Positions 39,016 to 52,146 of a stretch of 64,000 nt of DNA are shown here, one piece after another. How positions within the stretch are numbered: the stretch's first letter is position 1; the number at the start of each line of letters is the position of its first letter. The DNA comes from an uncultured Anaerolineae bacterium (GTDB lineage Bacteria > Chloroflexota > Anaerolineae > JACIWP01), in assembly GCA_938049385.1 (NCBI GenBank), contig CALIBQ010000044.1, forward strand, positions 1,680-65,679. Direction: 5' to 3'. The notes beneath the pieces were generated by a model. That model searched no databases and was not told where the DNA came from. It saw only the letters and a list, made by a program, of their open reading frames with translations. Position numbers and translations under genes: made by a program.

Positions 39016-40848
39016 TCAGAGATTCAGCCCGATGTGATAATAGTGTGGTACAAGATAGCCCCAAAAGGCGATCTGGTCAAATATGAAGAGCAGGATGACG
39101 AGCGCTCCTGACCAGATGCGGCGCGGCAGGCGAACCGGCGCCAGTTCCAGCCAGCCGGCGGCCAGCAGGGCGCAGAGCGGCAGGAGAGCAGGGAAGAGGT
39201 AGCGCCCCTGGGGCTGCCAGCCACTGCCAATCATGGGCAGGAAAGTCTGCAGAAGGATCAAGCCGGCCGCGATACCCATCCCCGCCCAGCCGGCCCCCAA
39301 CCGCCGACGGCGCACAGCCCGCATCAGCCCGACGCCAGCGGCCAGACAGACACCGGCCGGCAGGAGGTACCACTGCGGCGTGAGGGGCAGGGTGAGCCAG
39401 CCGAAATTGGCCCAGAAGCCGGCGAAGGTCAGCATCCCATAGAGGATATAGCGCCGCAGGGAGGGCCAGGAGTAGCTGGCCGGCTCCAGCAGATGCGGCA
39501 CCTGTCCTGGCGAGACGCGGAGAAAGCGTGCCCACCATCCTTGGCTCCAGTGCGCTCCCTCTTCCAGCCCGGGATTTTGGAGGAGCTGGCGGCGGGTCGG
39601 GTCGCCGGCGCGCCAGAGGGCGATGTCATCGGCCAGCAGGGGGACGGGGCCGGCATTGGCGATCACCACGGCCAGTCTGCTTGCTCTCTCTGAGACGACG
39701 CGGCAGGCCTGCACGTACTGCCAGCCGGCGCCGTTGGGGCGAAATCCCTGCCGCGTGCTGGATTCCCCGTCGGTGATGACCAAATAGCCCTGCGCCGGCG
39801 CGCCTTCTGCCATCACCCAGACCCCTAGGCACAGCTCGCTCCCGCGCAACTGCTGAGCCTTATTGAATGACAGTTCCTGGAGCGCGCGAGTTGGTTCTCC
39901 GTTCACCGCCGGCGCCAGGTACAGGGCATATTGGCCGGCATGGGAGGCACTGCTGATGCGTTCCGCCGGCTGGTAGCTGATGGGGGTCACCCAATCCGAT
40001 GCGCCGGCCAGGTGCCAGCTCCAGGCGATGCTCAGCGCCGAGGCGAATGCCAGGCCAGCGGCTGGCCACCAGGCCCGGTGGGCGCCCAACCAGGCGCACA
40101 GTTCCCTTCGGTACGCGATCACAAGCGTGAGGCACACGGCCGGCCATAGGAACAGCGTCGTTTTCTTTGTGAATGCCGATGCCAGCAGGAACAGCCCCAG
40201 CAGTCCTATGTTCTGCGGGTTCCAACCCCGGCGGATAGAGCGCAGGAGCCACCACAGCGCCGCAGATGAGACGAACATGCCGGCGATGTCGTTGTTGGCC
40301 GAACCGCCGATGAAAGCCGGCATGGGCATGAGGAGAGCCGCCGCCAGGGCCAGGCGCCACAGGGTGATATCGCGCGTCAGTTCACCAAGCCCCTGCCAGA
40401 TGAAGATCATGGTCAGGGCGTACAGCAGGACGGACCACAGGCGCATGAGCTGTAGCCCTTGGATGGGGTCAGCCGGCATCCAACGCAGGAGGAGCGCCGG
40501 CGGGAGGTAGTAGAGTGCTGGCTCGTCCTCGCGCTGGCTGATGAGGTAGGGGTCTTGGGAGAAGCGCGCCGGCAGGGGATTGGGTGTGGGCTTGCCCAAC
40601 CGCTCCCAGAAGCGTTCATCCACCAGGGAAGCGATGATATCGGACTGCAAGTCCGCTCGCGCCGGCGCCGATGGCTCCCGCAGTCCGTAATCTGCCAGAA
40701 TACGGGCGTACTCGTAATGGCCAGGTTCATCCGGCGCCTGCCAGGGCGGAACGGCCAGCAGGCCGAAGCCTGCGGCGCGGATGCCGGCCAGCAGGAAAAT
40801 CAGTGCCAGCTCCCAGAGGGGTCTGGAGAAAAATGAACGGCGGTGCAC
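39016..40848 (-). CDS. GT-C fold membrane glycosyltransferase (DUF2142/PMT-like) with inserted carbohydrate-binding-like domain
   Basis: PPWQAPDEPGHYEY, PALYY, ANND, TKKT, FWANFGW, QGRYLFP; soluble insert ending LLQNPGLEEG. Confidence 0.75.
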   Translation of the reverse strand: MHRRSFFSRPLWELALIFLLAGIRAAGFGLLAVPPWQAPDEPGHYEYARILADYGLREPSAPARADLQSDIIASLVDERFWERLGKPTPNPLPARFSQDPYLISQREDEPALYYLPPALLLRWMPADPIQGLQLMRLWSVLLYALTMIFIWQGLGELTRDITLWRLALAAALLMPMPAFIGGSANNDIAGMFVSSAALWWLLRSIRRGWNPQNIGLLGLFLLASAFTKKTTLFLWPAVCLTLVIAYRRELCAWLGAHRAWWPAAGLAFASALSIAWSWHLAGASDWVTPISYQPAERISSASHAGQYALYLAPAVNGEPTRALQELSFNKAQQLRGSELCLGVWVMAEGAPAQGYLVITDGESSTRQGFRPNGAGWQYVQACRVVSERASRLAVVIANAGPVPLLADDIALWRAGDPTRRQLLQNPGLEEGAHWSQGWWARFLRVSPGQVPHLLEPASYSWPSLRRYILYGMLTFAGFWANFGWLTLPLTPQWYLLPAGVCLAAGVGLMRAVRRRRLGAGWAGMGIAAGLILLQTFLPMIGSGWQPQGRYLFPALLPLCALLAAGWLELAPVRLPRRIWSGALVILLFIFDQIAFWGYLVPHYYHIGLNL

Positions 40849-40860
40849 CTTTATGTTCCG

Positions 40861-42060
40861 CTACAGCAAGCGGGTTTTCGCCGGCTGGTGCCGGGTCATG
40901 AATTCGGCGATGATGGAGGCGGCGATGGCAAGCACGGCGCCAGCCGTAATGGCAAGCACTGCGACTACGGACCAGTCACGGGATGCGCGTTTTTCCGGCG
41001 CCGCCGCCTTTCCGACCACTCGCACCAGGGGACCCTCCACCCGATTCTCGATCTCGATCTCGCTGACCTTGCGCTGAAGGGTCAGGTAATTCTCCTTGGC
41101 CAAGTTGCGTTCCTCTACCAGCCGATCCAGCTCCGAGGATAGCTGGGCCAGTTGTGCCTGGTCTGCGCTCAGGCGTTCCTCCAGAGCGGTAGCGGCGGCT
41201 TGCTGGGCCGTCAGTTCGGCATCCAGCAGGGCGGCCAGGGCGCCGGCATCGTTCAGGTGTTCGGCAACGACCTCATGCGTCAGGATGCCGCGGGCGGCGA
41301 TGGTGGGTGCGTCCAGCAACTGCCAGGACAGTTCCTCCAAGGAGGCGTTCTGCCGGCGGGCCTGCTCTAACTGTTCTTTCAGCAACTGCAGGTTGGCGAT
41401 GGCCTGGCGGTGAGCGGCTAACTGCCGGCTGCGCTCCGCCAGCTCCATGCCCAACGCCCCCAGCCATTCATAGCCCTCCAGCGATGGGGCGCCTTCGGAG
41501 GCGATACCCACACCGGTGCGGGCCTTGAACTCTTCCACGGCCTTCACTGCCTGCTGGTATTGTTCCTCCCAGCGCTTGAGTTCCTGGGCGAAGGGTTCCG
41601 CGAGGGCGGTGGCGCCGTAGAGCTGTTCAGCCTGATAGGCAAAGGCTTCCGCCCAAGCGTTGGCCAGGTCGGCGGCGTCCTGGGGCGTGAATGCAGTGAC
41701 GTCGATATGGATGAGCGACTGTTTGCCGGCCCGCACGCTCATCTCCCCGATATTTTTGTGCGGGAAGCGGGTCTCCACCTGTGCGGCGACCTGGCTCCGG
41801 AACCAGGGGTCTTTGGCTAGGTCGAGAAAGATGCGCTGCCAGTTCACGTTGACTGGTATGTTGGGGGAGAGGCGGGAGTCGAAGCGCCACTGGTACTGGG
41901 GTCCGCCGGCGAAGAGGGTAGCAGTGGCCGTGTAGCTGGCCGGCCGCAGGAGATTGACGAGGAGGATGGCGCCGGCGGTCAGGATGAAAATCACGATCCC
42001 CAGACGAGCATGCCGTACCAGGATGCGCAGATATCGGGTCAGATCAAGTTCGTCTTCCAT
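40861..42060 (-). CDS. Wzz/GumC-type polysaccharide chain-length determinant
   Basis: EDELDLTRYLRIL, TM, YTATAT, P..AA.LANAWA, coiled coil, A..P, C-terminal TM; alternative GTG start 42069. Confidence 0.8.
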   Translation of the reverse strand: MEDELDLTRYLRILVRHARLGIVIFILTAGAILLVNLLRPASYTATATLFAGGPQYQWRFDSRLSPNIPVNVNWQRIFLDLAKDPWFRSQVAAQVETRFPHKNIGEMSVRAGKQSLIHIDVTAFTPQDAADLANAWAEAFAYQAEQLYGATALAEPFAQELKRWEEQYQQAVKAVEEFKARTGVGIASEGAPSLEGYEWLGALGMELAERSRQLAAHRQAIANLQLLKEQLEQARRQNASLEELSWQLLDAPTIAARGILTHEVVAEHLNDAGALAALLDAELTAQQAAATALEERLSADQAQLAQLSSELDRLVEERNLAKENYLTLQRKVSEIEIENRVEGPLVRVVGKAAAPEKRASRDWSVVAVLAITAGAVLAIAASIIAEFMTRHQPAKTRLL

Positions 42061-42101
42061 TGCATTCACCCATGTGTCGGGGTAGATGACTTGACGCAGG
42101 T

Positions 42102-42130
42102 AGTGTAAACGAAAGGGGGCGTTTTGTCAA
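42102..42130 (-). promoter_or_regulatory. Promoter of the glycan locus
   Basis: TTGACA-17 bp-TACACT. Confidence 0.6.
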
Positions 42131-42157
42131 TGAGAGTTGGTCTGTTGGAGCAAACGC

Positions 42158-42192
42158 GCCTGGAGCCCATCCCCCGAGGGAGGGCTCCAGGC
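42158..42192 (-). terminator. Hairpin terminating the dehydrogenase unit
   Basis: GCCTGGAGCCC...GGGCTCCAGGC then GTTTG on the minus strand. Confidence 0.55.
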
Positions 42193-42239
42193 CTGATCAA
42201 TGTGATGCGTCTCCACTGGGTCGGTACTGCCCGGCGGGG

Positions 42240-43406
42240 TTATTCCTCGAAGCAGGACTCGTAAATCTTGATGTAGCTTTCCAGCGTCAGGTCGCGCGGG
42301 TTGCCGATGGTCTGGGGATCCTTGAAGGCCAGCTCGGCCAGCATGGGGATGTCCTTTTTCGGGATGCCCATCTGCGCCAGGGTGGGGATTTCCAGGTCCT
42401 TGACCAGCCGGCGTACTGCCTCGACCGCCTTCCAGGCCGCATCCCACACGCTGAGGCCGCGGATGTCTTCGCCCATAGCCAGGGCGATGCGGGCGTATTT
42501 CTCCGGCTCACCCAGGTAGTTGTAGGCCATGACGTGGGGCAGGAGAGCGGCGGTCAGGGTGCCGTGCGGCAGGTCATAGACGCCGCCGGCGGTCTGGCTC
42601 ATGGCATGGACGGCGCCGGCGCTTTCGGTGCCGTAGGACATGCCGGCGAGCATGGCGGCCATGGACATCTGATAGCGGGCTTTCAGGTTGTTGCCCTGGG
42701 CGAAAGCGATGCGCAGCCACTTGCCGATTTCCTCAATGGCCCATAGGGCCACTGCATCGGGCCAGGGCTGGGCGTAAGCGCAGGTGTAGCACTCGATGGC
42801 ATGGGTCAGGGCATCCAGGCCGGTGCCGGCGGTGATGTGGGCCGGCAGACCCAGGGTCAGCTCGGGGTCGATGAGTGCCACATATGGGGCGATGAGGCCG
42901 GTGCCGCCGACGTTGAATTTGATATGGCGGTTGGGGTCGGTGATGACGGCCCAGAGGGTCACTTCACTGCCGGTGCCGGCGGTGGTCGGTACAGTGATCA
43001 GCGGCGGGATGCGCTTTTTGATGGGCTGGGGATCGGCCCACTCATACTGCAGGATGGAGCCGCCGTTGGCCACCACTACGCCGATGGCCTTGGCGGTGTC
43101 CATGGAACTGCCGCCGCCGAAGCCGATCAGGCCGTCGCATCCTTCCTGTTTGTACACTTCCGCGCCGTGGTCCACCAGGGCAATGGGCGGGTTGGGGATG
43201 ACGTCCGCGAACAGGACGTAATCCACGTTCGAGGCCTGCAGGGCTTTCTCTGCCTCGCCCACCAGGCCGGTCTTGACCAGTCCCTGGTCAGTGACCAGCA
43301 TGGGGCGTTTGCATCCGAGCGCTTTGACCTCATCGCCCAGGGCCTTGACGGCGCCGGGGGCATGTTTGACCACGGTGGGCACTTCGAACGAACGCAGGTT
43401 CACCAT
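42240..43406 (-). CDS. Iron-containing alcohol dehydrogenase, GbsB (choline dehydrogenase)-like
   Basis: GGGSSMDTAK, PTTAGTGSEVT, DALTHAIECY; SYGTESAGAVHAMSQT and DPQTIGNPRDL match my recollection of B. subtilis GbsB. Confidence 0.85.
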   Translation of the reverse strand: MVNLRSFEVPTVVKHAPGAVKALGDEVKALGCKRPMLVTDQGLVKTGLVGEAEKALQASNVDYVLFADVIPNPPIALVDHGAEVYKQEGCDGLIGFGGGSSMDTAKAIGVVVANGGSILQYEWADPQPIKKRIPPLITVPTTAGTGSEVTLWAVITDPNRHIKFNVGGTGLIAPYVALIDPELTLGLPAHITAGTGLDALTHAIECYTCAYAQPWPDAVALWAIEEIGKWLRIAFAQGNNLKARYQMSMAAMLAGMSYGTESAGAVHAMSQTAGGVYDLPHGTLTAALLPHVMAYNYLGEPEKYARIALAMGEDIRGLSVWDAAWKAVEAVRRLVKDLEIPTLAQMGIPKKDIPMLAELAFKDPQTIGNPRDLTLESYIKIYESCFEE

Positions 43407-43503
43407 ATGTTCCTCTCCTTACATGAATTTGGTCTATCTTTCACCAGCTTGTTGGACATAATGCCGAGCTGGCGAATTGCCGAGTGGGTAAGAGACGGCC
43501 GGC

Positions 43504-44262
43504 TTACTTGCGCTGGACCTCTTCGGGCAGTTCGTACCAGCGCACCCGCTTGCCGATCTTGGCGCGCAGTTTCCACTTGGTGGGCTTGGGAACCGCCTCC
43601 ATGGCATCCTGGATCGCCAAGATGCGGTTGCGGATGATGCGCTGGGATTCCTGGTCCAACCCCACCTTGCCCAGGTTTTCCAGGATGCGCTCAAAGTTCA
43701 TGTTGACGGTGGTGTACAGCCCCCAATCCTGGGCGCCCAGCTCCGCGATGCGCTCCGAATTGATCATGTCATCGTCCGACGGTCCCACAGGATGGTCGAG
43801 CAGGATAGCCAGCATATCAATGAGATCCTTCTGGTTCAGCTCGATGATCTGGGCCTTGGTCAGGAACAGCTCGGCCAGGGGGATGGTGAGTTTGTCTTTG
43901 TCCAGCCGGCCCTCCAGCGGGATTTTGTGGCACATGCTGAATTCGCTGATGAAGATGTCAATCTGGCGGTTGTCGTGATATGGGTCGTAGTAAAGCTGTC
44001 GCCAGTCGCCGCTGAGCGTGTTGAAGGTCTTATTGGGCACGTAGCCCATGCGCTCGAAGAAATCGGGCAGTCGGATGCTCCCCTCTTTGTCGGTAACGAA
44101 GTCGGCGTCTTTGTACTTGCGCGCCAGCGGGCCGGCGACGGAGCTGGGGCAGTGAAGCCAGACCGCCAGCCCTCCGATCAGCCGGATGAAAATCCCTTCT
44201 TTCTGCGCGGCTTCGATAAGCCGCAGTGCTTCATCTTTTACATCATCTAACGTAGGAGCCAT
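43504..44262 (-). CDS. Uncharacterised Pol-beta superfamily nucleotidyltransferase-fold protein
   Basis: RLIGGLAV..H...RKYKDADF (hGG + DxD), third Asp in IDIF, LFLTK.Q...KD..D. Confidence 0.7.
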   Translation of the reverse strand: MAPTLDDVKDEALRLIEAAQKEGIFIRLIGGLAVWLHCPSSVAGPLARKYKDADFVTDKEGSIRLPDFFERMGYVPNKTFNTLSGDWRQLYYDPYHDNRQIDIFISEFSMCHKIPLEGRLDKDKLTIPLAELFLTKAQIIELNQKDLIDMLAILLDHPVGPSDDDMINSERIAELGAQDWGLYTTVNMNFERILENLGKVGLDQESQRIIRNRILAIQDAMEAVPKPTKWKLRAKIGKRVRWYELPEEVQRK

Positions 44263-44311
44263 GGTTATTTTCCAACCCTATTCCCCCTAGAACGTGGGGA
44301 CATGGTTAGGG

Positions 44312-44339
44312 GGAGCTGGGGGCATTAGCCCCCAGCTCC
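44312..44339. other. Intergenic stem-loop between permease and NTase genes
   Basis: GGAGCTGGGGGC-ATTA-GCCCCCAGCTCC; no U-tract in the sense direction. Confidence 0.6.
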
Positions 44340-44353
44340 GGTCCAACCGGCGC

Positions 44354-46000
44354 TTATTCGACCGGGATTTCCTCATATACCTTGTCGATGTCAATGCCCT
44401 GCCGCTTGCGGTAGGTTTTGAACCCGAAGTAGATCACTGCCGCCAGCACATACATCGCCAGCATGAAGACGACCGAGCTGATATTGCGGTAGCTGATGCC
44501 GTAGAGCTGGAGCGGGTCAATCAGCCACTCGTAGAGCAGGAACAGCTCGAAGCCGAGGAAGATGATGCCGGCGATGGTGATAAGGGGTACGCCGCCTACC
44601 TTGTACTTGGCGATGGGCGAGGCATTGTACAGGTCCCGCTTGCGGTACGGCAGGAGGATGGCGGCGATGGTGCTTCCCAGATACGTGGTAGCGATGACCA
44701 GTGTGGAGCACAGCGTCAGCGACTGGAAGTTGAAGATGTTCCAGGAATACAGCGCGCCGACGATAAGGGAAGGAATCACCATCAGCAGGAGGGCATTGAT
44801 GGGCGTGCGGAAGCGCGGGTGAATGTCCGCCACCCATTCCGGCAGGAGGCGATCAAAGGCCGCCGCGAAGATGACGCGGGTGGAGCTCAGGAAGACCGTG
44901 CCCGACCAGCCGAAGAACCACAGCCCCATCAGCAGGATAACGATGAACTGGATCACCCGGCTGTTGGTGAGCAGAACGGCGAACAGGGCAGGGTAAGGCC
45001 AGACAGGGATGGGCGGTGGGGTTTCGGTATAGCCCCAGCGGTAGTTCCAGAACGCCCCGTTGGCCTTCATGTAGAAGTCCCAAGAGATGGTCTTGTTGAT
45101 GAGCACGAAGAGCACGATACCCAGGATGGCGGTGGCGATGAGGGCGTACCACATGCCGTAGAAGTTGCGCTTGAAGTCGGTGGCGCCGCGCACTTCGCCG
45201 TAGAGGGTAGCGCCCCAGTTCGGCCACAAGTTGAAGAAGACCATGTAAGGGATGGCCAAGAAGATAGGGGCCAAGGCCCATCCGCCGCCCCAGGTCTGGG
45301 CAGTGCCGGCCTCTTCGCCGGCGGCCAGCGTCGCTTCATATAGGCCGTCGCCCGATGCGCCGAACAACTGCGGGATCTGGGCTTCCAGGTTGGCCTTGAA
45401 TGCCGCCGGGTTGCCGAAGAGCAGGAACAGGAAGACCAGCAGTAAGCCGATGAGGCCGCCGATGAAGCAGGCTTTCTGCAGGCGGGCATAGTTGCGCATG
45501 CCCATGGCGATGTAGACGAACACGAAGGCACAGACGATCACCACGCTGATGAATGCACCCTCTGGCGTCTCGGTGAACCACAGCGCCGGCGACTGCGCGC
45601 CCAGGATCGCCAGCAAGGGGGTGATGACCTCAAAGCGCAGCATGTCGGCGTACAGGGGAACCCAGTACCAGAGGATGAACCACCAACCGGTGATCGCCAG
45701 GATGAAGCCCACGCCGCCGCCCAGGATGCGGCTCTGCCAGACGTAGTCACCGCCGGCACGCGGCATCACCGCGATCAGGGCCGCGTACACGAGACATTCG
45801 AACGTGATGAAGAAAGTGGAAACCAGCAGGGCACCGATCAGATTCCCATCGAGGTAGTACATCTGGGAGAAGATGTACAACCCCAGGGTGATGAGGTTGA
45901 CCGAGAAGAAGGCGTAGATGAACGCGTCGGTAACCGACCAAGCGCGCACCAGTCCAGTCGCGGCCCGGACGAACAGGGTAGTGGATTGCTGACGTTCCAT
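44354..46000 (-). CDS. APC superfamily permease
   Basis: LFVRAATGLVR, MPRAGGDYVWQSR, TRVIFAAAFDRLLP..ADIHPRFRTP; about 14 TMs; YEEIPVE end. Confidence 0.9.
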   Translation of the reverse strand: MERQQSTTLFVRAATGLVRAWSVTDAFIYAFFSVNLITLGLYIFSQMYYLDGNLIGALLVSTFFITFECLVYAALIAVMPRAGGDYVWQSRILGGGVGFILAITGWWFILWYWVPLYADMLRFEVITPLLAILGAQSPALWFTETPEGAFISVVIVCAFVFVYIAMGMRNYARLQKACFIGGLIGLLLVFLFLLFGNPAAFKANLEAQIPQLFGASGDGLYEATLAAGEEAGTAQTWGGGWALAPIFLAIPYMVFFNLWPNWGATLYGEVRGATDFKRNFYGMWYALIATAILGIVLFVLINKTISWDFYMKANGAFWNYRWGYTETPPPIPVWPYPALFAVLLTNSRVIQFIVILLMGLWFFGWSGTVFLSSTRVIFAAAFDRLLPEWVADIHPRFRTPINALLLMVIPSLIVGALYSWNIFNFQSLTLCSTLVIATTYLGSTIAAILLPYRKRDLYNASPIAKYKVGGVPLITIAGIIFLGFELFLLYEWLIDPLQLYGISYRNISSVVFMLAMYVLAAVIYFGFKTYRKRQGIDIDKVYEEIPVE

Positions 46001-46109
46001 TTTTGCCGACTCTCCTTTCCTTCCCTGAGCCTGCCTAGGGTGGTGGAATGACGAAAGAATGAGAGACTGCCGTACCGCTGTTCAGACCAGCAAGGATCTC
46101 TTGTGCGCC

Positions 46110-46147
46110 ATCACCTCCTTTCTGAGAAAGCCAATGATATTATAGCA
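46110..46147 (-). promoter_or_regulatory. Extended -10 promoter followed by a 14-nt anti-16S (SD-like) element in the permease leader
   Basis: TGCTATAAT (46147-46139), then AGAAAGGAGGTGAT (46123-46110). Confidence 0.55.
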
Positions 46148-46194
46148 CAATCCCGATGCGTCGAACCCTCGAAAATGGGTGCCGGCCGCCGGCG

Positions 46195-47136
46195 TCAGCC
46201 GGTGGTCAGCAGGTACGACTTGATCTTGCCCTTGTTCAGGGTGATGACGGCACCCAACAGCCGGCCCTGCTCGTACATACTGCCCGGGTTGATGCATAGC
46301 GTGCGGCCGATGCGGGCTGTGCCCTTCCCTTCATGGATGTGCCCGAACAGTCCCAGCAAAGGCTGATACTTTTCGACGATTTCCCGCACCGCGGTACTGC
46401 CGACAGGAATCAGCGCCCGACCGCCCAGCTTGGGCTTGAGGTCGGGGGTCAGTTCCGGTGCCTCATCCAGGTTGCTGTTGTACGGCGGGACATGGAAGTT
46501 GAAGACAGCGGTCTCGGGCTTGCTGAGCTTCTTGACAATAGCTTCCAGACGCTCTTTCAGTTGGGGCTCCTCTTCCTCTCGGTAGGTGTGCCAAGGGGTG
46601 ATGTTGCTCCAGCCGGAGCTGACCATCTCGTGGTAATCATCAATATGGATTACCTCGCCCTCGGCCAGGTGGACGTGCTTGGAGGCGCGGATGATGTCGT
46701 CAATCTCGAACATGTCATCGTTGCCCGGAGCGACGTAACAGCGGATGCCGGTGCCTTCGAGCTTTTCATCGGCGTATTCCATCCAGGCTTGGACGGTTTT
46801 CAGCACTTCTTTGTGGAACAGTTCATCCACCTTTTCCGGGTGCTGTTCCAGCTCGCGGATTTCATCGGGGTTGGTGACGTAGGGGTAATAGCCGCGGCTT
46901 TTGACCTGCTTGATCATCTGGTCCACTTCCTCCTGGCCGTGGAGCTCGAACTGCTGTTCCAGGAGTGTGGCGATATACTTGTCACCACCCTGGTGGACGA
47001 TGGGCACGATGGCCTTGCCGGTCATGTCGCCGCCGAGGATGATGATGTCCGCGTTGTAGAATTTGCCGGCGTTAATGAACTTCTTCCAGCAGATGTCGGA
47101 ACCGTGAACGTCCGTCGCAAAAAAGATCGTTGTCAC
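46195..47136 (-). CDS. Calcineurin-like metallophosphoesterase (Icc-related)
   Basis: ATDVHGS, GGDMTGK, PGNDD, FHVPPY, FGHIHE, INPGS; GTG start with GGAGG SD. Confidence 0.88.
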   Translation of the reverse strand: MTTIFFATDVHGSDICWKKFINAGKFYNADIIILGGDMTGKAIVPIVHQGGDKYIATLLEQQFELHGQEEVDQMIKQVKSRGYYPYVTNPDEIRELEQHPEKVDELFHKEVLKTVQAWMEYADEKLEGTGIRCYVAPGNDDMFEIDDIIRASKHVHLAEGEVIHIDDYHEMVSSGWSNITPWHTYREEEEPQLKERLEAIVKKLSKPETAVFNFHVPPYNSNLDEAPELTPDLKPKLGGRALIPVGSTAVREIVEKYQPLLGLFGHIHEGKGTARIGRTLCINPGSMYEQGRLLGAVITLNKGKIKSYLLTTG

Positions 47137-47260
47137 TCTGCCCTCCAAACAGAAATGGTCTCCGAGCAAGCCCGGGTACTGCCGAGTAATAGTGTGCTAG
47201 AAAAATATCTGTGATATACTACACTATCTGCGAGAATCCGCCCCTGCGGCGGGCAGTAGG

Positions 47261-47890
47261 CTATACCTGTGCCCGCACCTGGCTCCAGAAGTCCAGCACG
47301 TGTCGCTCCATGAGCTGATGGGCGAGGTCAGGGTCGCGCTTGCGCAAGGCGTTGAGCAGTTGCCAGTGTTGGGTCTGGATTTCGGCGGCGCCGGCGGCAG
47401 GATCCGGGGCCAGGCGCCAGATGCGCGCGGTTAAGTCGTAGAGCCAGCGAACGCCATCAATCAGGAACTTGTTGCCAGTGGCCTCGGAGATGATTTTGTG
47501 CACCAGGCGGTCGCTTTCCATGAGCCGGCCGACATAGTCCGGGCTGTGCCGGTCTTCTGCCATGCGAACAGCATCTTCCAGGGCGGAGAGCTGGTCTTCC
47601 GTAATGCGTTCTGCGGCCAGCCGCGCTGCCCAGGTCTCAATGGGTATGCGGGCTTCGAAGATCTGTTTGAGGTCGGTGACGCTGATTTCGGAGACATACA
47701 TCCCGCGGCGGGGCTGGATGACTACCAGGTCGTCGCGTGCTAAGCGCTGAAGCGCTTCCCGGATCGGGGTGCGGCCGATCCCCAGCTCCTGGATCAGTTC
47801 CGCTTCGCGGAGCACTTTCCCGGGGGGATATTCCAGGCTGACGATCTTGGCTTTCAGGATGTTGTAGGCCCGCTCTGTCTGGGAAATCAT
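47261..47890 (-). CDS. GntR family (FCD) transcriptional regulator
   Basis: PG..L.EAEL...LGIGRTPIREAL..L, E.R..IE, D..VH..I....GN..L, H..L..AL..RD. Confidence 0.93.
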   Translation of the reverse strand: MISQTERAYNILKAKIVSLEYPPGKVLREAELIQELGIGRTPIREALQRLARDDLVVIQPRRGMYVSEISVTDLKQIFEARIPIETWAARLAAERITEDQLSALEDAVRMAEDRHSPDYVGRLMESDRLVHKIISEATGNKFLIDGVRWLYDLTARIWRLAPDPAAGAAEIQTQHWQLLNALRKRDPDLAHQLMERHVLDFWSQVRAQV

Positions 47891-47939
47891 CGAGAGAATC
47901 CCTGTGAGATGGCGGCAAATGTGCCGGCGCCCCCACGAC

Positions 47940-47980
47940 TGATGTATTAATAATATATCACAGGTCGCCGGATTTGTCAA
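47940..47980 (-). promoter_or_regulatory. gntR promoter with overlapping palindrome (candidate auto-operator)
   Basis: TTGACA-17 bp-TATATT; TGATGTATT-AAT-AATATATCA near-palindrome at 47940-47960. Confidence 0.65.
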
Positions 47981-48000
47981 TCGCGGGGATATTACGTTGC

Positions 48001-48083
48001 CGGGCGGCTGAAGACTTGCCGGCATCTGCGAGGCCTGCCTGCGCCGGCTAACTTGACAGGCGCAGTTTCAACTGCCAGGCAGG
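48001..48083 (-). repeat. Degenerate inverted copy of the palindromic repeat family
   Basis: GGCGGCTGAAG and GCAGTTTCAACTGCCAGG are reverse complements of the arms of copies A/B; central GCCTGCCTGCGC. Confidence 0.55.
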
Positions 48084-48145
48084 TCCGATGCGGATACCAA
48101 CTTCTCTCATATGCGGCTTCTGCAACACCATCGGTCTGAAGCCCA

Positions 48146-48174
48146 TTGACAACGGCGCGATTTTGGAATATGCT
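48146..48174 (+). promoter_or_regulatory. Sigma70-type promoter for the Zn-ribbon/protease/transglutaminase unit
   Basis: TTGACA-17 bp-TATGCT. Confidence 0.6.
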
Positions 48175-48307
48175 AAAGGTGGAAATCCATGTTACTGCCG
48201 GCATGATGGATACTGTGTACGTAGGAATACGAAAAGGGGTGCGTAGAGAGAGGATCATGGATTGATGCGGACGATGAGGTCGCCGGCCGGCACAAGGAGG
48301 TTGGACG

Positions 48308-48685
48308 ATGGTAAACCTGACGCAAATTGAAGAATATCTGCGCGAAATGGGCTGTCCCCGCTGTTATTCCACGCGTCTGGAGGTCTGCGTCCAGTTGGAA
48401 ACGGAAAATGGACTGCCCCGGATCATGGTGGTATGTCAGCAGTGCGGGTTCCGGTTCGAAATCAACGGCGAGGCCCTGACCTGGGACGCATTGGAGAAGC
48501 AGGTGGAACGCGATGTTCGCCGGAAGGGCTGCCCCCGATGCGGCAGTCATCGTCTGGAGCTGAACTTCCGGTGTTCGCTGGAATCGCGGCGCAGTTTCCA
48601 CGTGGCCACCTGCCAGGATTGTGGGGCGGTCTTCATTGTGGAGAAGCAGTTGGACGAACCGCGACCAGGGATTTTTGATATGTGA
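48308..48685 (+). CDS. Small protein with two tandem zinc-ribbon repeats (hypothetical)
   Basis: GCPRC.S.RLE....C..CG..F repeated twice; AAGGAGG SD. Confidence 0.75.
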   Translation: MVNLTQIEEYLREMGCPRCYSTRLEVCVQLETENGLPRIMVVCQQCGFRFEINGEALTWDALEKQVERDVRRKGCPRCGSHRLELNFRCSLESRRSFHVATCQDCGAVFIVEKQLDEPRPGIFDM

Positions 48686-48705
48686 ATCGTGAAGGAGAAC
48701 AGGAC

Positions 48706-49824
48706 ATGAAAGGCTCCATTCGGGTAGGTAAGCTCTTTGGCATCCCGCTGTTCATTCATTATACTTGGTTCGTCATTGTGGCACTGATCACCGTCTCGTT
48801 CGCCACAGTTAACTACCCGAGCCAATACCCGGGCTGGCCGGCCGCTTCCTACTGGCTGGCCGGCCTGCTCACGGCGCTCCTGCTGTTCGCATCGGTGTTG
48901 ATTCACGAGCTTTCCCACAGCCTGGTGTCGCGGGCCCAGGGCGTGCCGGTGGACAGCATCACCCTGTTCATCTTCGGCGGGGTGGCGAACATCCGTGAGG
49001 AGCCGCGCAAGGCGCGCCATGAACTGCTGATGGCGGCCGCCGGCCCTGCTTCATCCCTGCTCCTGGCCCTGCTCCTGGGCATCGCGGCGCTGGTGGCGCC
49101 GGCGAGGTCGTTTGCGGCCGGCCTGGCGCGCACCCTGGCCCTCATCAACCTGTGGGTGGGGCTGTTCAACCTCATCCCCGGCTTCCCCCTCGACGGCGGC
49201 CGGGTCCTGCGCTCCCTCGTCTGGTGGGGCAGTAGCGATATCGTGCAGTCCACCCGCATCGCCTCCATCATCGGGCGGGTCATTGCCACGCTGATGATTA
49301 TCAGCGGGTTCCTGGTGGCTATCTTCCTGGGCGATTGGGTGAGTGGCCTATGGCTGGTCTTCATCGGCTGGTTCCTGGACAATGCCGCCGTGCAGAGCTA
49401 TCAGCAGTTGCTCCTGCGGGAGGCGCTCGCCGGCGTAACCGCTCGCCAGCTCATGAGTCCCCTCTGCCCGACCATCGAGGATGACCCCGACCTGCAGACC
49501 GTGGTGGATGAATTGGTGCTGGGCACCGGCCAGCGCTGTCTGTTCATCGCGCGGGAAAACCGCCTGGCCGGCCTGCTGACCCTGCACCATATCAAGAGCG
49601 TGCCGAAGGAGCGCTGGCGGGAAACGCACGTCTCCGAGGTGATGACCCCATCTGCAGAGATTAAATCGGTGGATGTCAACCAGAGCGGGCTGAACATCCT
49701 GCGCACCATGGACGAGGCCAATGTGAACCAGATTCCGGTGGTGGAGGGAGACCGCTTGGTGGGCATTATCACGCGGGAGCATGTACTGCATTACATCCGC
49801 AACCGCATTGAGCTAGGGTTATAG
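48706..49824 (+). CDS. Site-2 (M50) metalloprotease with CBS domain pair
   Basis: HELSH, LFIFGGVA, AAAGP, FNLIPGFPLDGGR; C-terminal CBS pair. Confidence 0.93.
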   Translation: MKGSIRVGKLFGIPLFIHYTWFVIVALITVSFATVNYPSQYPGWPAASYWLAGLLTALLLFASVLIHELSHSLVSRAQGVPVDSITLFIFGGVANIREEPRKARHELLMAAAGPASSLLLALLLGIAALVAPARSFAAGLARTLALINLWVGLFNLIPGFPLDGGRVLRSLVWWGSSDIVQSTRIASIIGRVIATLMIISGFLVAIFLGDWVSGLWLVFIGWFLDNAAVQSYQQLLLREALAGVTARQLMSPLCPTIEDDPDLQTVVDELVLGTGQRCLFIARENRLAGLLTLHHIKSVPKERWRETHVSEVMTPSAEIKSVDVNQSGLNILRTMDEANVNQIPVVEGDRLVGIITREHVLHYIRNRIELGL

Positions 49825-49845
49825 CGCCGGCGAAAGAGGTGGCGC

Positions 49846-52146
49846 GTGACAGACGAGGAAGGGCTGGCGCGCTGGCGTGAACTGCGCCTGTCCTTTGTGC
49901 TTCTGCTGTTGATATATCTCAATTTGACCTGGTCCATTCAGGGCGCCCGCTGGGCGGAGGGCCTGCACATCCTGCCGTGGGTAGTCCTGGGCACGGTGGT
50001 GCTGGGTTTCTTGCTGGCCATCAGCAGATGGCCGGCGCACGCCGCACACGGCTACATCCTCTTCGTCGGCGTTATTACTAACAGCCTCCTCCTCTGCGCC
50101 CTGGTATCTCCGGAGCTTTCATGGCAGGACCGTCTTATTGAGGTGGGCCTGCGGCTCTATCACTGGTTCATGGTCCTGCTGGGCGGCGGCACCAGCTACG
50201 ATAACCTGGTGTTTGTGGCGGAGCTGGCGCTCCTGCTGTGGATCGTCGGCTATGTGTCCGCCTGGCAGTATTTCCGCCACCGCCGGCTGTGGTGGGCCCT
50301 TTTCCCGCCCACCGCCGGCCTCATGTTCAATCTGTATTACGCCCCGCCGGAACTACTGCCCTATTTCATGATTCACTTGGGCCTCTGCCTCCTGCTCCTC
50401 ATCCGCCACCGCCTGCATCAACGCCAGGGGGAATGGCAGAAGGCCCGCATCTTGGCCGGCGACGAAGCCCGCTTCGACATCATCCGCGATGGCCTGATCA
50501 TCGCGCTCCTAGCCCTCTTCCTGGCCTGGACGCTTCCCGGCGCACAACAGGTGAAAGCCCTGGCGCGCTTCGGGGAACGCCTGGAGCGGCCGGTGCGCAC
50601 GGTCAAGGAGGAGTGGAACCGCCTCTTCGCCTCGCTCCAGCGCTACGGGCGTTCGCAGGAGCTGACCTTTGGGCCGACCAAACTGCTGGCCGGCGAGGTG
50701 CAGTTGACCGACGCGCCCATCGCTGATATCCAGGCGGCGGAAGGGCGCTATTGGGCGGCGGCCGTGTATGACTATTACGGCGGGCGCGGTTGGGCGGCGA
50801 CCTATACCGATCGCGGCCCGCTGGGGGAGAATTCCTCGCCGATGGCAGAGCCGCCGTATCGGATGCGCATGAAGGTGGAGCAGGTGGTGCGGGTGCGCTG
50901 GCCGGCCATGCGCATTATTCTGGCGGCCCCTCTGCTGTACCAGGTGGATATCCCGGCCGAGGCCCAGCTCCTCTATCTGCCGCGGGAGGGCGCCACGGCG
51001 GCGCGGCCGCCGGCGGATATCCAGATGGCTTTCCCCCAGCACCGCCTGTACGAGGGTGATGTCTATCGGGTGACGTCGTTGGTCTCTGCGGCAGACGAGG
51101 AGAGCCTGCGCGCCGCTGGCACGGATTATCCCGATTGGGTGCGGCAGTATTACCTGCAACTGCCCCAGGATGTGCCCCGGCGTCTGCGCTGGCTGGCCAG
51201 GTTCCTGACCCGTGGTCTGACCAACAATTACGATAAAGCGCTGGCCATCGAGAGCTTTCTGCGCCTGATCCCGTATAATGAGCATGTCGAGGCGCCGCCG
51301 CCGACGGAGGATGCCGTTGAGTATTTCATTTTCATGATGCGCGAGGGGTACTGCGACTATTATGCCTCGGCCATGGTGGTGCTGGCGCGCATCGCCGGCA
51401 TCCCTGCTCGCTTCGTACAGGGCTACGCGGTGGGAGAACCCGACGCGAACGGCGTGTATCATATCTTGGAAAGGAATGGACACGCCTGGGCGGAGCTGTA
51501 CTTCCCTGGATATGGATGGATCATCTTTGAGCCGACGCCGGCTCAGCCCCTGCCTGTGCGCTATGCCAACCGGGCGGAGGCGCTGATCGCTGAAGCGGAA
51601 CACCGCACCGCGCCGACCAATCCTCTGGAAGAGGAGGAAAAGTTCGGTCCGGACATGCCCCCTATGGGCGAAGCGGCGGGGCCGTTCGGGGTGGGGGAAC
51701 TGCCAACGCCGGCGCGGGTGGGGGCAGAGATCGGCATCGTGCTGGTGGGGTTGGCCCTGCTGGTGGGCATCCTCTGGGGCCTCTGGCGGTTGATGGAGCC
51801 GCGAAGACTGACGCCGGTGGAGCGTGCTTATCTGCGGCTGACACGATTGGCACGCGTGCTGGCCGGCGTGCGGGCTGAGCCGACCTGGACGCCGTATGAG
51901 TTTGCCGGGACGCTGGCGCGTCGGGCACCGGCGGCCGGTGGGAGCGTGCGCGCGCTGGCCGATATGTTCGTGCGGCAGAGGTACGGGCCGGCCGGCTCAG
52001 CAGTGGCAGAGGGCGACCCACTGGAGGTTTGGCGCCAGGCCAGTGCGGAGCTGTTGGGCGCGCGGATACGCGAGATATACCATCGGTTTATGGGGCTGGT
52101 ACGGCTACCGAAGGATTATGCCGGCTCCAGCGGCAGGGTGAAGTAG
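49846..52146 (+). CDS. Membrane transglutaminase-like protein (TgpA type)
   Basis: N-terminal TMs; GYCDYYASAM...R..GIPAR...GY, HAWAELYFPGYGW..FEPTP; TM and DUF4129-like TP.EF tail. Confidence 0.9.
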   Translation: MTDEEGLARWRELRLSFVLLLLIYLNLTWSIQGARWAEGLHILPWVVLGTVVLGFLLAISRWPAHAAHGYILFVGVITNSLLLCALVSPELSWQDRLIEVGLRLYHWFMVLLGGGTSYDNLVFVAELALLLWIVGYVSAWQYFRHRRLWWALFPPTAGLMFNLYYAPPELLPYFMIHLGLCLLLLIRHRLHQRQGEWQKARILAGDEARFDIIRDGLIIALLALFLAWTLPGAQQVKALARFGERLERPVRTVKEEWNRLFASLQRYGRSQELTFGPTKLLAGEVQLTDAPIADIQAAEGRYWAAAVYDYYGGRGWAATYTDRGPLGENSSPMAEPPYRMRMKVEQVVRVRWPAMRIILAAPLLYQVDIPAEAQLLYLPREGATAARPPADIQMAFPQHRLYEGDVYRVTSLVSAADEESLRAAGTDYPDWVRQYYLQLPQDVPRRLRWLARFLTRGLTNNYDKALAIESFLRLIPYNEHVEAPPPTEDAVEYFIFMMREGYCDYYASAMVVLARIAGIPARFVQGYAVGEPDANGVYHILERNGHAWAELYFPGYGWIIFEPTPAQPLPVRYANRAEALIAEAEHRTAPTNPLEEEEKFGPDMPPMGEAAGPFGVGELPTPARVGAEIGIVLVGLALLVGILWGLWRLMEPRRLTPVERAYLRLTRLARVLAGVRAEPTWTPYEFAGTLARRAPAAGGSVRALADMFVRQRYGPAGSAVAEGDPLEVWRQASAELLGARIREIYHRFMGLVRLPKDYAGSSGRVK

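Follow-up and report, generated by a model that had tools for sequence, protein, structure and literature searches.

The gbsAB pathway of Bacillus subtilis for the oxidation of choline consists of a type-III iron-dependent alcohol dehydrogenase (ADH), GbsB, and an aldehyde dehydrogenase (ALDH), GbsA, together with the repressor GbsR and the Opu importers. A different organization is seen in AmtB-GlnK-GlnD, where the importer of a nitrogen compound is obligately adjacent to a soluble partner and is joined by a nucleotidyltransferase (NT) of the Pol-beta fold, one NT serving several pairs, and in the frlABCDR genes of Escherichia coli an APC permease (FrlA) is combined with a PfkB kinase (FrlD), a SIS deglycase (FrlB) and a GntR/UTRA regulator (FrlR). 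The locus described here, which lies in a 64,000-nucleotide (nt) stretch of DNA (the window) from an uncultured Anaerolineae bacterium of the Chloroflexota (assembly GCA_938049385.1, contig CALIBQ010000044.1, positions 1,680 to 65,679 of the forward strand), bears a partial likeness to each of these systems. It encodes a GntR-family regulator, a metallophosphoesterase (MPE), an APC permease, an NT and an ADH, and it is probably a locus of the choline type whose core is a conserved permease module, the latter being formed by the permease, the MPE and the NT. None of the three families in this trio has a characterized member, and the trio spans at least three phyla.

An initial annotation of the window, made from its sequence alone, had described five co-oriented genes, and all five open reading frames (ORFs) and their families were confirmed at the same positions on the minus strand. 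It had also regarded its proposal as falling if these genes did not co-occur in other genomes; the trio does co-occur, and across phyla. In a phyletic profile of 301 genomes of the class Anaerolineae, the MPE was found in 47 and the NT in 62, the NT being present in 45 of the 47 genomes that have the MPE. The 20 loci at the best Anaerolineae NT matches comprise 12 orthologous and 4 paralogous trios, one locus cut by a contig end and 3 without a permease, with the ADH following in 6 and the GntR gene in 5 of them. Beyond the class, a single-protein query found only one close relative; the scan across phyla was therefore alignment-based, took one genome per species and returned at least 553 relatives, from which the 79 best loci were examined. 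These derive from Chloroflexota (Anaerolineae, Thermomicrobium and Ktedonobacteraceae), Actinomycetota (Rubrobacter, Gaiellales, Solirubrobacterales and Conexibacter), Bacillota (Pelotomaculum) and one metagenome-assembled genome of Planctomycetota, with a Conexibacter sp. and a Thermomicrobium sp. as cultured carriers among the relatives. Both the MPE and the permease lie beside the NT in 46 of the 79 loci, and when only the 43 loci whose flanks both extend to at least 4 kb are counted, both partners are present in 29, the MPE only in 5, the permease only in 4 and neither in 5. The 46 trios occur in five gene orders (with N for the NT, M for the MPE and A for the permease, NMA 22, MAN 16, AMN 4, NAM 3 and ANM 1), and the MPE and the permease are adjacent in 45 of them. 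That the set is kept while its order is shuffled is a classic sign that genes are functionally linked.

This linkage is what disposes of the weakest explanation, that five ordinary genes stand together by chance, which is the least credible of those considered: it could point to the small share of related loci that carry the GntR gene (5 of 53) or the ADH (14 of 53), but a trio kept through five gene orders and at least three phyla, with a genome co-occurrence of 45 in 47, contradicts it.

The permease (44354-46000, minus strand, 548 amino acids) is a divergent member of the APC superfamily, with a match to AA_permease_2 (PF13520) of 60.2 bits against a cut-off of 27 over residues 29-490. It reaches no NCBIfam subfamily (TIGR00909, 52 bits against 556.8; BcaP, 33.5 against 690), and its best match among solved chains is LAT2, with an E value of 0.009. 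The APC assignment of the initial annotation stands, whereas its count of about 14 transmembrane segments is less firm, as a crude hydropathy profile gives about 12 clear peaks (12-14). Orthologues that are 47-75% identical sit in trios across phyla, and the protein is a putative importer of choline or of a quaternary amine akin to it.

The extreme C-terminus of the permease carries a short cytoplasmic tail (residues 528-548, KTYRKRQGIDIDKVYEEIPVE, encoded at 44357-44419 on the minus strand), which was delineated by alignment of the MPE-linked permeases and conforms to the consensus basic-x-x-G-[IVM]-D-x4-[YHF]-x-E-[IVL]-P-x-[ED]. Within it two residues, G535 and P546, do not vary at all and a third, E544, reaches at least 90% conservation, even when permeases that are only 21-26% identical overall are aligned. 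As a control, every match to PF13520 was listed in nine genomes (the window's own, five other Anaerolineae, a Conexibacter, a Thermomicrobium and an Anaerolineales chromosome), which gave 36 genes. All 14 of the tail-bearing APC genes adjoin an MPE of this family; of the other 22, none adjoins an MPE. The C-terminus could be read in 21 of these, all of which lack the tail, the remaining one being a partial match that is unreadable there. Many of these tail-less proteins are long and KimA-like. Conversely, each MPE match in the nine genomes adjoins a tail permease. Judged from these alignments and gene neighbourhoods, the MPE-permease pair would form the obligate core of the module, and the tail is the obvious candidate for the contact between the two.

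The NT is in the locus for 12 of the 14 tail-permease/MPE pairs. Each genome has one copy or more of it, but its copy number can fall below that of the pairs: the Conexibacter has two tail permeases, two MPEs and one NT, and the Thermomicrobium three, two and one. A single NT can accordingly accompany two MPE-permease pairs, which suggests that it can serve in trans. The tail signature, the strict one-to-one link to the MPE and the indications of an NT working in trans are new here. The two pairs that have no NT in the locus are L158 (Thermomicrobium C23) and L159 (Conexibacter); one stands beside a tandem C-N hydrolase and the other beside an M20 hydrolase, and a DDE transposase is found 2.4 kb from the Conexibacter pair.

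To compare the contexts of the module, 95 non-redundant loci were split by the identity of their permease to that of the window, 53 being classed as orthologous (at least 45%) and 18 as paralogous. At least one choline or glycine-betaine gene is found in the flank of 29 of the 53 orthologous loci, as against 2 of the 18 paralogous ones. The orthologous loci include an ADH at least 50% identical to that of the window in 14 cases, an aldehyde ferredoxin oxidoreductase (AFOR) and an MttB-family gene in 8 each, OpuAC in 7, corrinoid-protein and pterin-binding genes in 4 each and an ALDH in 3; with the GntR gene in 5 of them, this regulator and the ADH are lineage-specific additions to the trio.

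The same MPE and NT families, for their part, accompany permeases that are only 21-26% identical to that of the window. The window's own genome has a second such unit (G000:C35:14315-21464; L132, 10315-17464), which consists of a GntR/UTRA regulator, a permease of 541 amino acids with a tail ending in SVPPL, an MPE of 328 amino acids (43% identical), an NT of 264 amino acids (38-40%), a class I/II aminotransferase and an FGGY kinase. Elsewhere the paralogous partners are a PfkB::SIS fusion with a LOG-like protein (L122), a cyclase-family hydrolase, a formamidase, a tandem C-N hydrolase or an M20 hydrolase. It is these paralogous trios only that recall the frl system, through the PfkB::SIS fusion of L122, the GntR/UTRA regulator and sugar kinase of the second unit and the combination of a permease for an amine compound with catabolic enzymes; the frl operon differs in having neither an MPE nor an NT partner. 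Because the partners vary from operon to operon and one NT can accompany two pairs, the MPE and the NT are tied to the type of permease and not to choline chemistry, and we read them as accessories dedicated to the permease rather than as catabolic enzymes for choline esters. In that, the present interpretation departs from the initial annotation, which had favored a route for the uptake and breakdown of one kind of cargo, an amino alcohol in phosphorylated or nucleotidylated form. In that form the proposal is not supported, as the MPE and the NT accompany divergent permeases in operons of differing chemistry.

Some units of other forms were also seen. Two loci, L033 (G043:C18) and L035 (G057:C108), have a decaying appearance, with the MPE split or truncated, no permease and an intact NT. 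A distant form of the unit occurs in L049-L052 (e.g. L052, 6811-17272), where two NT paralogues in inverted orientation flank an MPE and a universal stress protein. One NT comes after a permease and two small proteins without a Pfam match; the other comes after a DUF5656 protein and is next to a prepilin peptidase.

The choline assignment of the locus rests in part on the ADH (42240-43406, minus strand, 388 amino acids), which has the Pfam domains Fe-ADH and ADH_Fe_C and scores 582.5 bits against the cut-off of 550 of the NCBIfam equivalog for GbsB, NF053866, its residues 1-387 covering model positions 6-392. The next-best NCBIfam family is lactaldehyde reductase, at 341 bits and under its own cut-off, and no other equivalog is reached. 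By the NCBI criterion the enzyme is a GbsB-type choline dehydrogenase, as the initial annotation had recognized from its signatures, and oxidation of choline is predicted for it. Copies beside the trio are 66-81% identical in other Anaerolineae and 55-57% identical in loci of Bacillota and Rubrobacteraceae, so that the linkage of the ADH to the trio recurs in three phyla.

The likeness to gbsAB lies in this enzyme, which is above the GbsB cut-off, and in the ALDH, AFOR and OpuAC genes that related loci add. The differences are several: no ALDH of the GbsA type was found in the window's genome, a GntR/FCD regulator stands in place of GbsR, an APC permease accompanied by an MPE and an NT takes the part of the Opu importers, and the product probably feeds an anaerobic, MttB-dependent demethylation rather than osmoprotection. 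With regard to the last point, the genome gave at least 20 MttB-family, 8 corrinoid-protein and 15 AFOR matches, the metabolic profile of an anaerobe that uses methyl-amines. Only three PF13520 permeases were found in it; two belong to trios and one is KimA-like. A Peptococcaceae methylotroph is described in PMC8163858 as growing on choline and betaine via this kind of route.

The MPE (46195-47136, minus strand, 313 amino acids) matches Pfam Metallophos with 27 bits against a cut-off of 21.5, and its AlphaFold2 (AF2) model, with a pLDDT of 94.7, has the sandwich fold of MPEs. The Asp that replaces His in its GNDD motif (cf. GNH[DE]), already remarked upon in the initial annotation, is invariant in all 47 aligned MPEs, as are D9-x-H11, G36-D37, H215 and G265-H266-x-H268; all metal ligands are kept and only the general-acid His is replaced. 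Foldseek returned 174 solved chains at E values of at most 0.001, all of those listed being MPEs, with the best fold matches to 2yvt (E value 2e-12) and 1uf3 (3e-9), at TM scores of 0.67-0.72 on the target; 2yvt is also the best match by sequence among solved chains (E value 4e-6). These two, aq_1956 (2yvt) and Tt1561 (1uf3), both structural-genomics proteins of the Pfam family Metallophos_3, are the only near structural relatives of the MPE, and since both are uncharacterized no function is transferred from them. Residues 86-257 of 2yvt correspond to MPE residues 138-317, and the window's protein is about 50 residues longer before GNDD. The designation as an Icc-like phosphoesterase is not borne out, as none of the curated phosphodiesterase families of NCBIfam is reached (YfcE, 20 bits against 56.25; PRK09453, 19.7 against 117). 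Homologues number at least 7998, mostly of 313 amino acids.

The NT (43504-44262, minus strand, 252 amino acids) has no Pfam or NCBIfam match, and a sequence search against solved structures gave nothing significant (best E value 0.32). Its assignment comes from conserved motifs and from an AF2 model (pLDDT 93.8) with the NTase fold: across 47 sequences D52, D54 and D102 never change and the conservation of G30-G31 is 90% or higher, which agrees with the Pol-beta fold and the catalytic aspartates put forward in the initial annotation. In VIA-align the model reached Z scores of 12.4 with MenT1 (170 residues aligned, rmsd 3.3), 11.8 with 5uvd, 11.1 with ANT(2'') (154 residues, rmsd 3.6) and 10.0 with both TglT and LnuA, and Foldseek gave E values of 6e-5 (MenT1) to 1e-3 against solved NTases. 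With ANT(2'')-Ia, LnuA and MenT it shares the NTase core followed by a helical C-terminal domain and the same G-G, DxD and D motifs; it differs from them in an identity of just 9-16%, in a context of neither resistance nor toxin-antitoxin genes and in an acidic C-terminal tail of its own. About 28 residues are invariant across paralogues that are 33-41% identical, many of them charged and located in the C-terminal helical domain. PF14907 (NTP_transf_5), a family labelled uncharacterized, is weakly matched by 39 of 47 NT relatives (best E value 7.7e-8; paralogues 18-22 bits, under the cut-off of 31.2 bits) and is not matched by the window's NT at an E value of 0.01; judged from these profiles, the NT appears to belong near this family. 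There are 1083 homologues in the protein collection, and a protein atlas had only generic names for the NT and the MPE.

The acidic tail of the NT (residues 240-252, 43504-43545) is conserved as RWYE[EL][VP]EEV, RWYELPEEV in the window, with W242 invariant, and is modeled with low confidence. It is loosely similar to the YxEIPxE of the permease tail, and the two could address one binding site. Two longer proteins that seemed to be fused forms of the NT were discarded as frameshift artefacts with out-of-frame low-complexity stretches, one of them running into an arginase-family gene.

In text searches of open articles without their supplements, the trio was not described and PF14907/NTP_transf_5 received one passing mention; searches on PF14582/Metallophos_3/TT1561/aq_1956 of the same scope gave no description of a module. 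The statement of the initial annotation that no characterized pathway has this gene set thus agrees with the open literature searched.

In the explanation that we favor, the GntR/FCD regulator would control a unit for the uptake and first oxidation of choline or a close quaternary amino alcohol. The permease would import choline or a near relative, the ADH would convert it to betaine aldehyde, an AFOR encoded elsewhere would make glycine betaine, and corrinoid-dependent enzymes of the MttB family would demethylate the latter. The MPE would dock on the permease, most likely via the tail, and the NT would act on a constant acceptor, either one of these two proteins or a bound factor, and not on the cargo; such a constancy of the acceptor is proposed because the NT is kept in nearly every genome that has the pairs and yet can be single-copy, and because about 28 of its residues are invariant across paralogues. 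Together the NT and the MPE would switch uptake on and off by reversible nucleotidylation, as GlnD and GlnK do for AmtB. The statement as a whole, choline unit plus switch, is put forward as tentative, if with a real prospect of being right, and the switch by nucleotidylation, which comes in part from analogy, is itself somewhat doubtful.

The analogy with AmtB-GlnK-GlnD concerns the architecture only. It consists of a membrane importer for a nitrogen compound, a soluble partner that is obligately next to it and an NTase of the Pol-beta fold, one NT being able to serve several pairs; in the window, by contrast, the partner is a catalytically intact MPE and the importer belongs to the APC and not the Amt type. 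No PII gene turned up in the loci that were read, although no search aimed at PII was made. That the NT and the MPE might act as a writer/eraser pair on the transporter had been raised as the second option in the initial annotation, and of its two options this one fits the data better; the docking of the MPE on the permease and the nucleotidylation of a protein are steps that we infer.

Several observations speak against the explanation just given. The assignment of choline as the cargo, and with it the whole pathway, is drawn from gene context, and the relatives that were counted are non-independent samples, so that the counts overstate the statistical support. For the pathway, no PF00171 aldehyde dehydrogenase is present in the whole genome, which is 97.95% complete, with a match obtained in 14 of 14 control genomes; this extends the absence of gbsA from the window noted in the initial annotation, and the second oxidation step must fall to one of the AFOR paralogues, none of whose 15 genes is on the window's contig. 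For the switch, 12 of the 14 tail-permease/MPE pairs have a local NT, whereas around the other two none was seen within 6-7 kb, and the NT may be dispensable there. No Ser, Thr or Tyr of the tail is invariant, since the Tyr is replaced in some permeases by His, Phe or Gln, and in view of this lack of an invariant hydroxyl residue the tail is unlikely to be the modified site. The nearest solved relatives of the NT act on small-molecule hydroxyls or tRNA and not on proteins, and the complete catalytic centre of the MPE would suit the processing of a cargo as well as it would suit an eraser. When the NT and the MPE were co-folded with the permease tail (residues 519-548) as the scored partner, the scores were 0.42, 0.18 and 0.09 (median 0.18, against a mark of 0.32); these runs, being without controls, carry no weight either way.

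The alternative that survives best, which comes near the leading proposal of the initial annotation, is that the enzymes process the cargo. The permease would import a zwitterionic phosphoester or nucleotide conjugate of an amine, such as phosphocholine, glycerophosphocholine or a CDP-alcohol, the docked MPE would cleave it at the exit, the ADH would oxidize the choline released, and the NT would handle a common by-product or re-activate a phosphorylated intermediate. Such a model would account for the MPE being the constant partner of the tail permease (14 of 14) with all of its catalytic residues kept, and for the two MPE-permease pairs that have no local NT. GpdQ, a glycerophosphodiesterase, is found among the Foldseek matches of the MPE (rank 25), the replacement of His by Asp in GNDD is reminiscent of LpxH, YfcE and other MPEs whose substrates are phosphoanhydrides or activated diesters, and the FGGY and PfkB kinases that recur in the paralogous operons could take up a released polyol. 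However, the formamidase, C-N hydrolase, M20 hydrolase and aminotransferase contexts suggest plain amides and amines, for which no phosphoester step is needed, and OpuAC beside 7 of the 53 orthologous trios is a quaternary-amine and not an ester context. In addition, the model does not by itself yield a role for the NT, yet the NT is kept in nearly all of the genomes that have the MPE, and transport of phosphodiesters or nucleotides is not known for APC carriers. Cargo processing is regarded as somewhat less likely than the favored explanation and retains a substantial share of the probability.

Considerably less probable is a local second-messenger loop, in which the NT would make a signaling nucleotide that gates the permease and that the MPE degrades. 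An NTase fold of the synthase kind next to an MPE of the phosphodiesterase type would follow the usual writer/eraser logic of messengers; the MPE family includes cyclic-nucleotide phosphodiesterases, and CD-NTases are among the weak Foldseek matches of the NT (ranks 13, 32 and 35). A diffusible messenger, however, would need neither a dedicated MPE for each permease nor whole paralogous trios in one genome, the best structural relatives of the NT (MenT, ANT(2'') and LnuA) are not cyclases, and the permease has no evident receptor domain beyond its 21-residue tail.

A toxin or defence module of the MenT/AbiEii kind, with the MPE as antitoxin or effector, was considered as MenT1 is the top structural match of the NT and the MPE matches the PADLOC candidate PDC-S10 with 43 bits. 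It was rejected and is held to be very improbable: the identity to MenT1 is only 14%, the PDC-S10 match covers only the generic MPE core, the NT has no PADLOC match and no antitoxin-like neighbour, its neighbours in 46 of the 79 loci being the permease and the MPE, and the linkage to a permease and a catabolic operon is constant across phyla.

Returning to the reversible switch on the permease, the module would represent a new class of transporter control, in which an MPE sits on the signature tail of a dedicated APC clade and a trans-acting NT sets its state by nucleotidylation; of this generalization we are rather doubtful. If true, many Terrabacteria would share a post-translational switch for importers of organic nitrogen (choline, Amadori compounds and amides), an organic-nitrogen counterpart of AmtB-GlnK-GlnD. 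Should the two enzymes regulate the permease, they would constitute a new bacterial way to control nutrient uptake, and should they process its cargo, imported amines in phosphoester or nucleotide-linked form would make up a new class. The permease and the GbsB-type dehydrogenase are in addition a candidate entry point to choline and betaine metabolism. Choline and glycine betaine are major sources of carbon, nitrogen and methyl groups in sediments and seawater, where MttB-rich Anaerolineae are abundant.

With respect to the layout of the locus, the gaps between the genes are 97, 91, 194 and 124 nt in the order ADH/NT/permease/MPE/GntR. The longest ORF of the MPE extends to 47169, and the start is probably the GTG at 47136 because homologues have 313 amino acids. 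The regulator (47261-47890, minus strand, 209 amino acids) has the architecture of the FadR/FCD subfamily, with PF00392 (GntR) at 68 bits and PF07729 (FCD) at 94 bits, and reaches no NCBIfam equivalog at its cut-off. Its longest ORF extends to 48025; the start is probably M46, at position 47890, since homologues in related loci have 207-210 amino acids and a promoter-like site (47980-47952, minus strand) falls inside the longer ORF. The site, TTGACA-17-TATATT with an extended TG, matches the consensus at 11 of 12 positions and lies upstream of the likely GntR start; as 4 promoter-like sites were found in the region against 2.7 expected from shuffles, it is to be read as a consensus match only.

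A 13-nt motif, CTGTGATATA[CT]TA, occurs at 47209-47221 and at 47951-47963 in inverted orientation, the copies being complementary at 12 of 13 positions; one lies in the gap upstream of the MPE and the other over the -10 element of the promoter-like site. The pair is a candidate operator for the GntR regulator, with about 0.5 such pairs expected here by chance according to a rough estimate. A terminator scan gave 5 hits against 5.2 expected, none of them at a gene end, and the sole Rfam match over 41900-48700 was to CRISPR-DR28, which stayed below the gathering score (25.9 against 35 bits; E value 0.26) and was taken as chance.

The GC content is 0.58 in the NT, 0.60 in the permease and 0.57 in the MPE, as compared with 0.64 in the ADH, 0.62 in the GntR gene and a window mean of 0.64. 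A horizontally acquired island, considered from this dip alone, was rejected, same-genus copies being 97% identical. The flanks are unrelated to the module: downstream, at 39016-42069 on the minus strand, lie genes for a Wzz/GNVR-like chain-length protein and a 610-amino-acid membrane protein without a family, and upstream, on the opposite strand at 48682-52146 (plus), those for an M50 protease that carries CBS domains and for a transglutaminase-like membrane protein.

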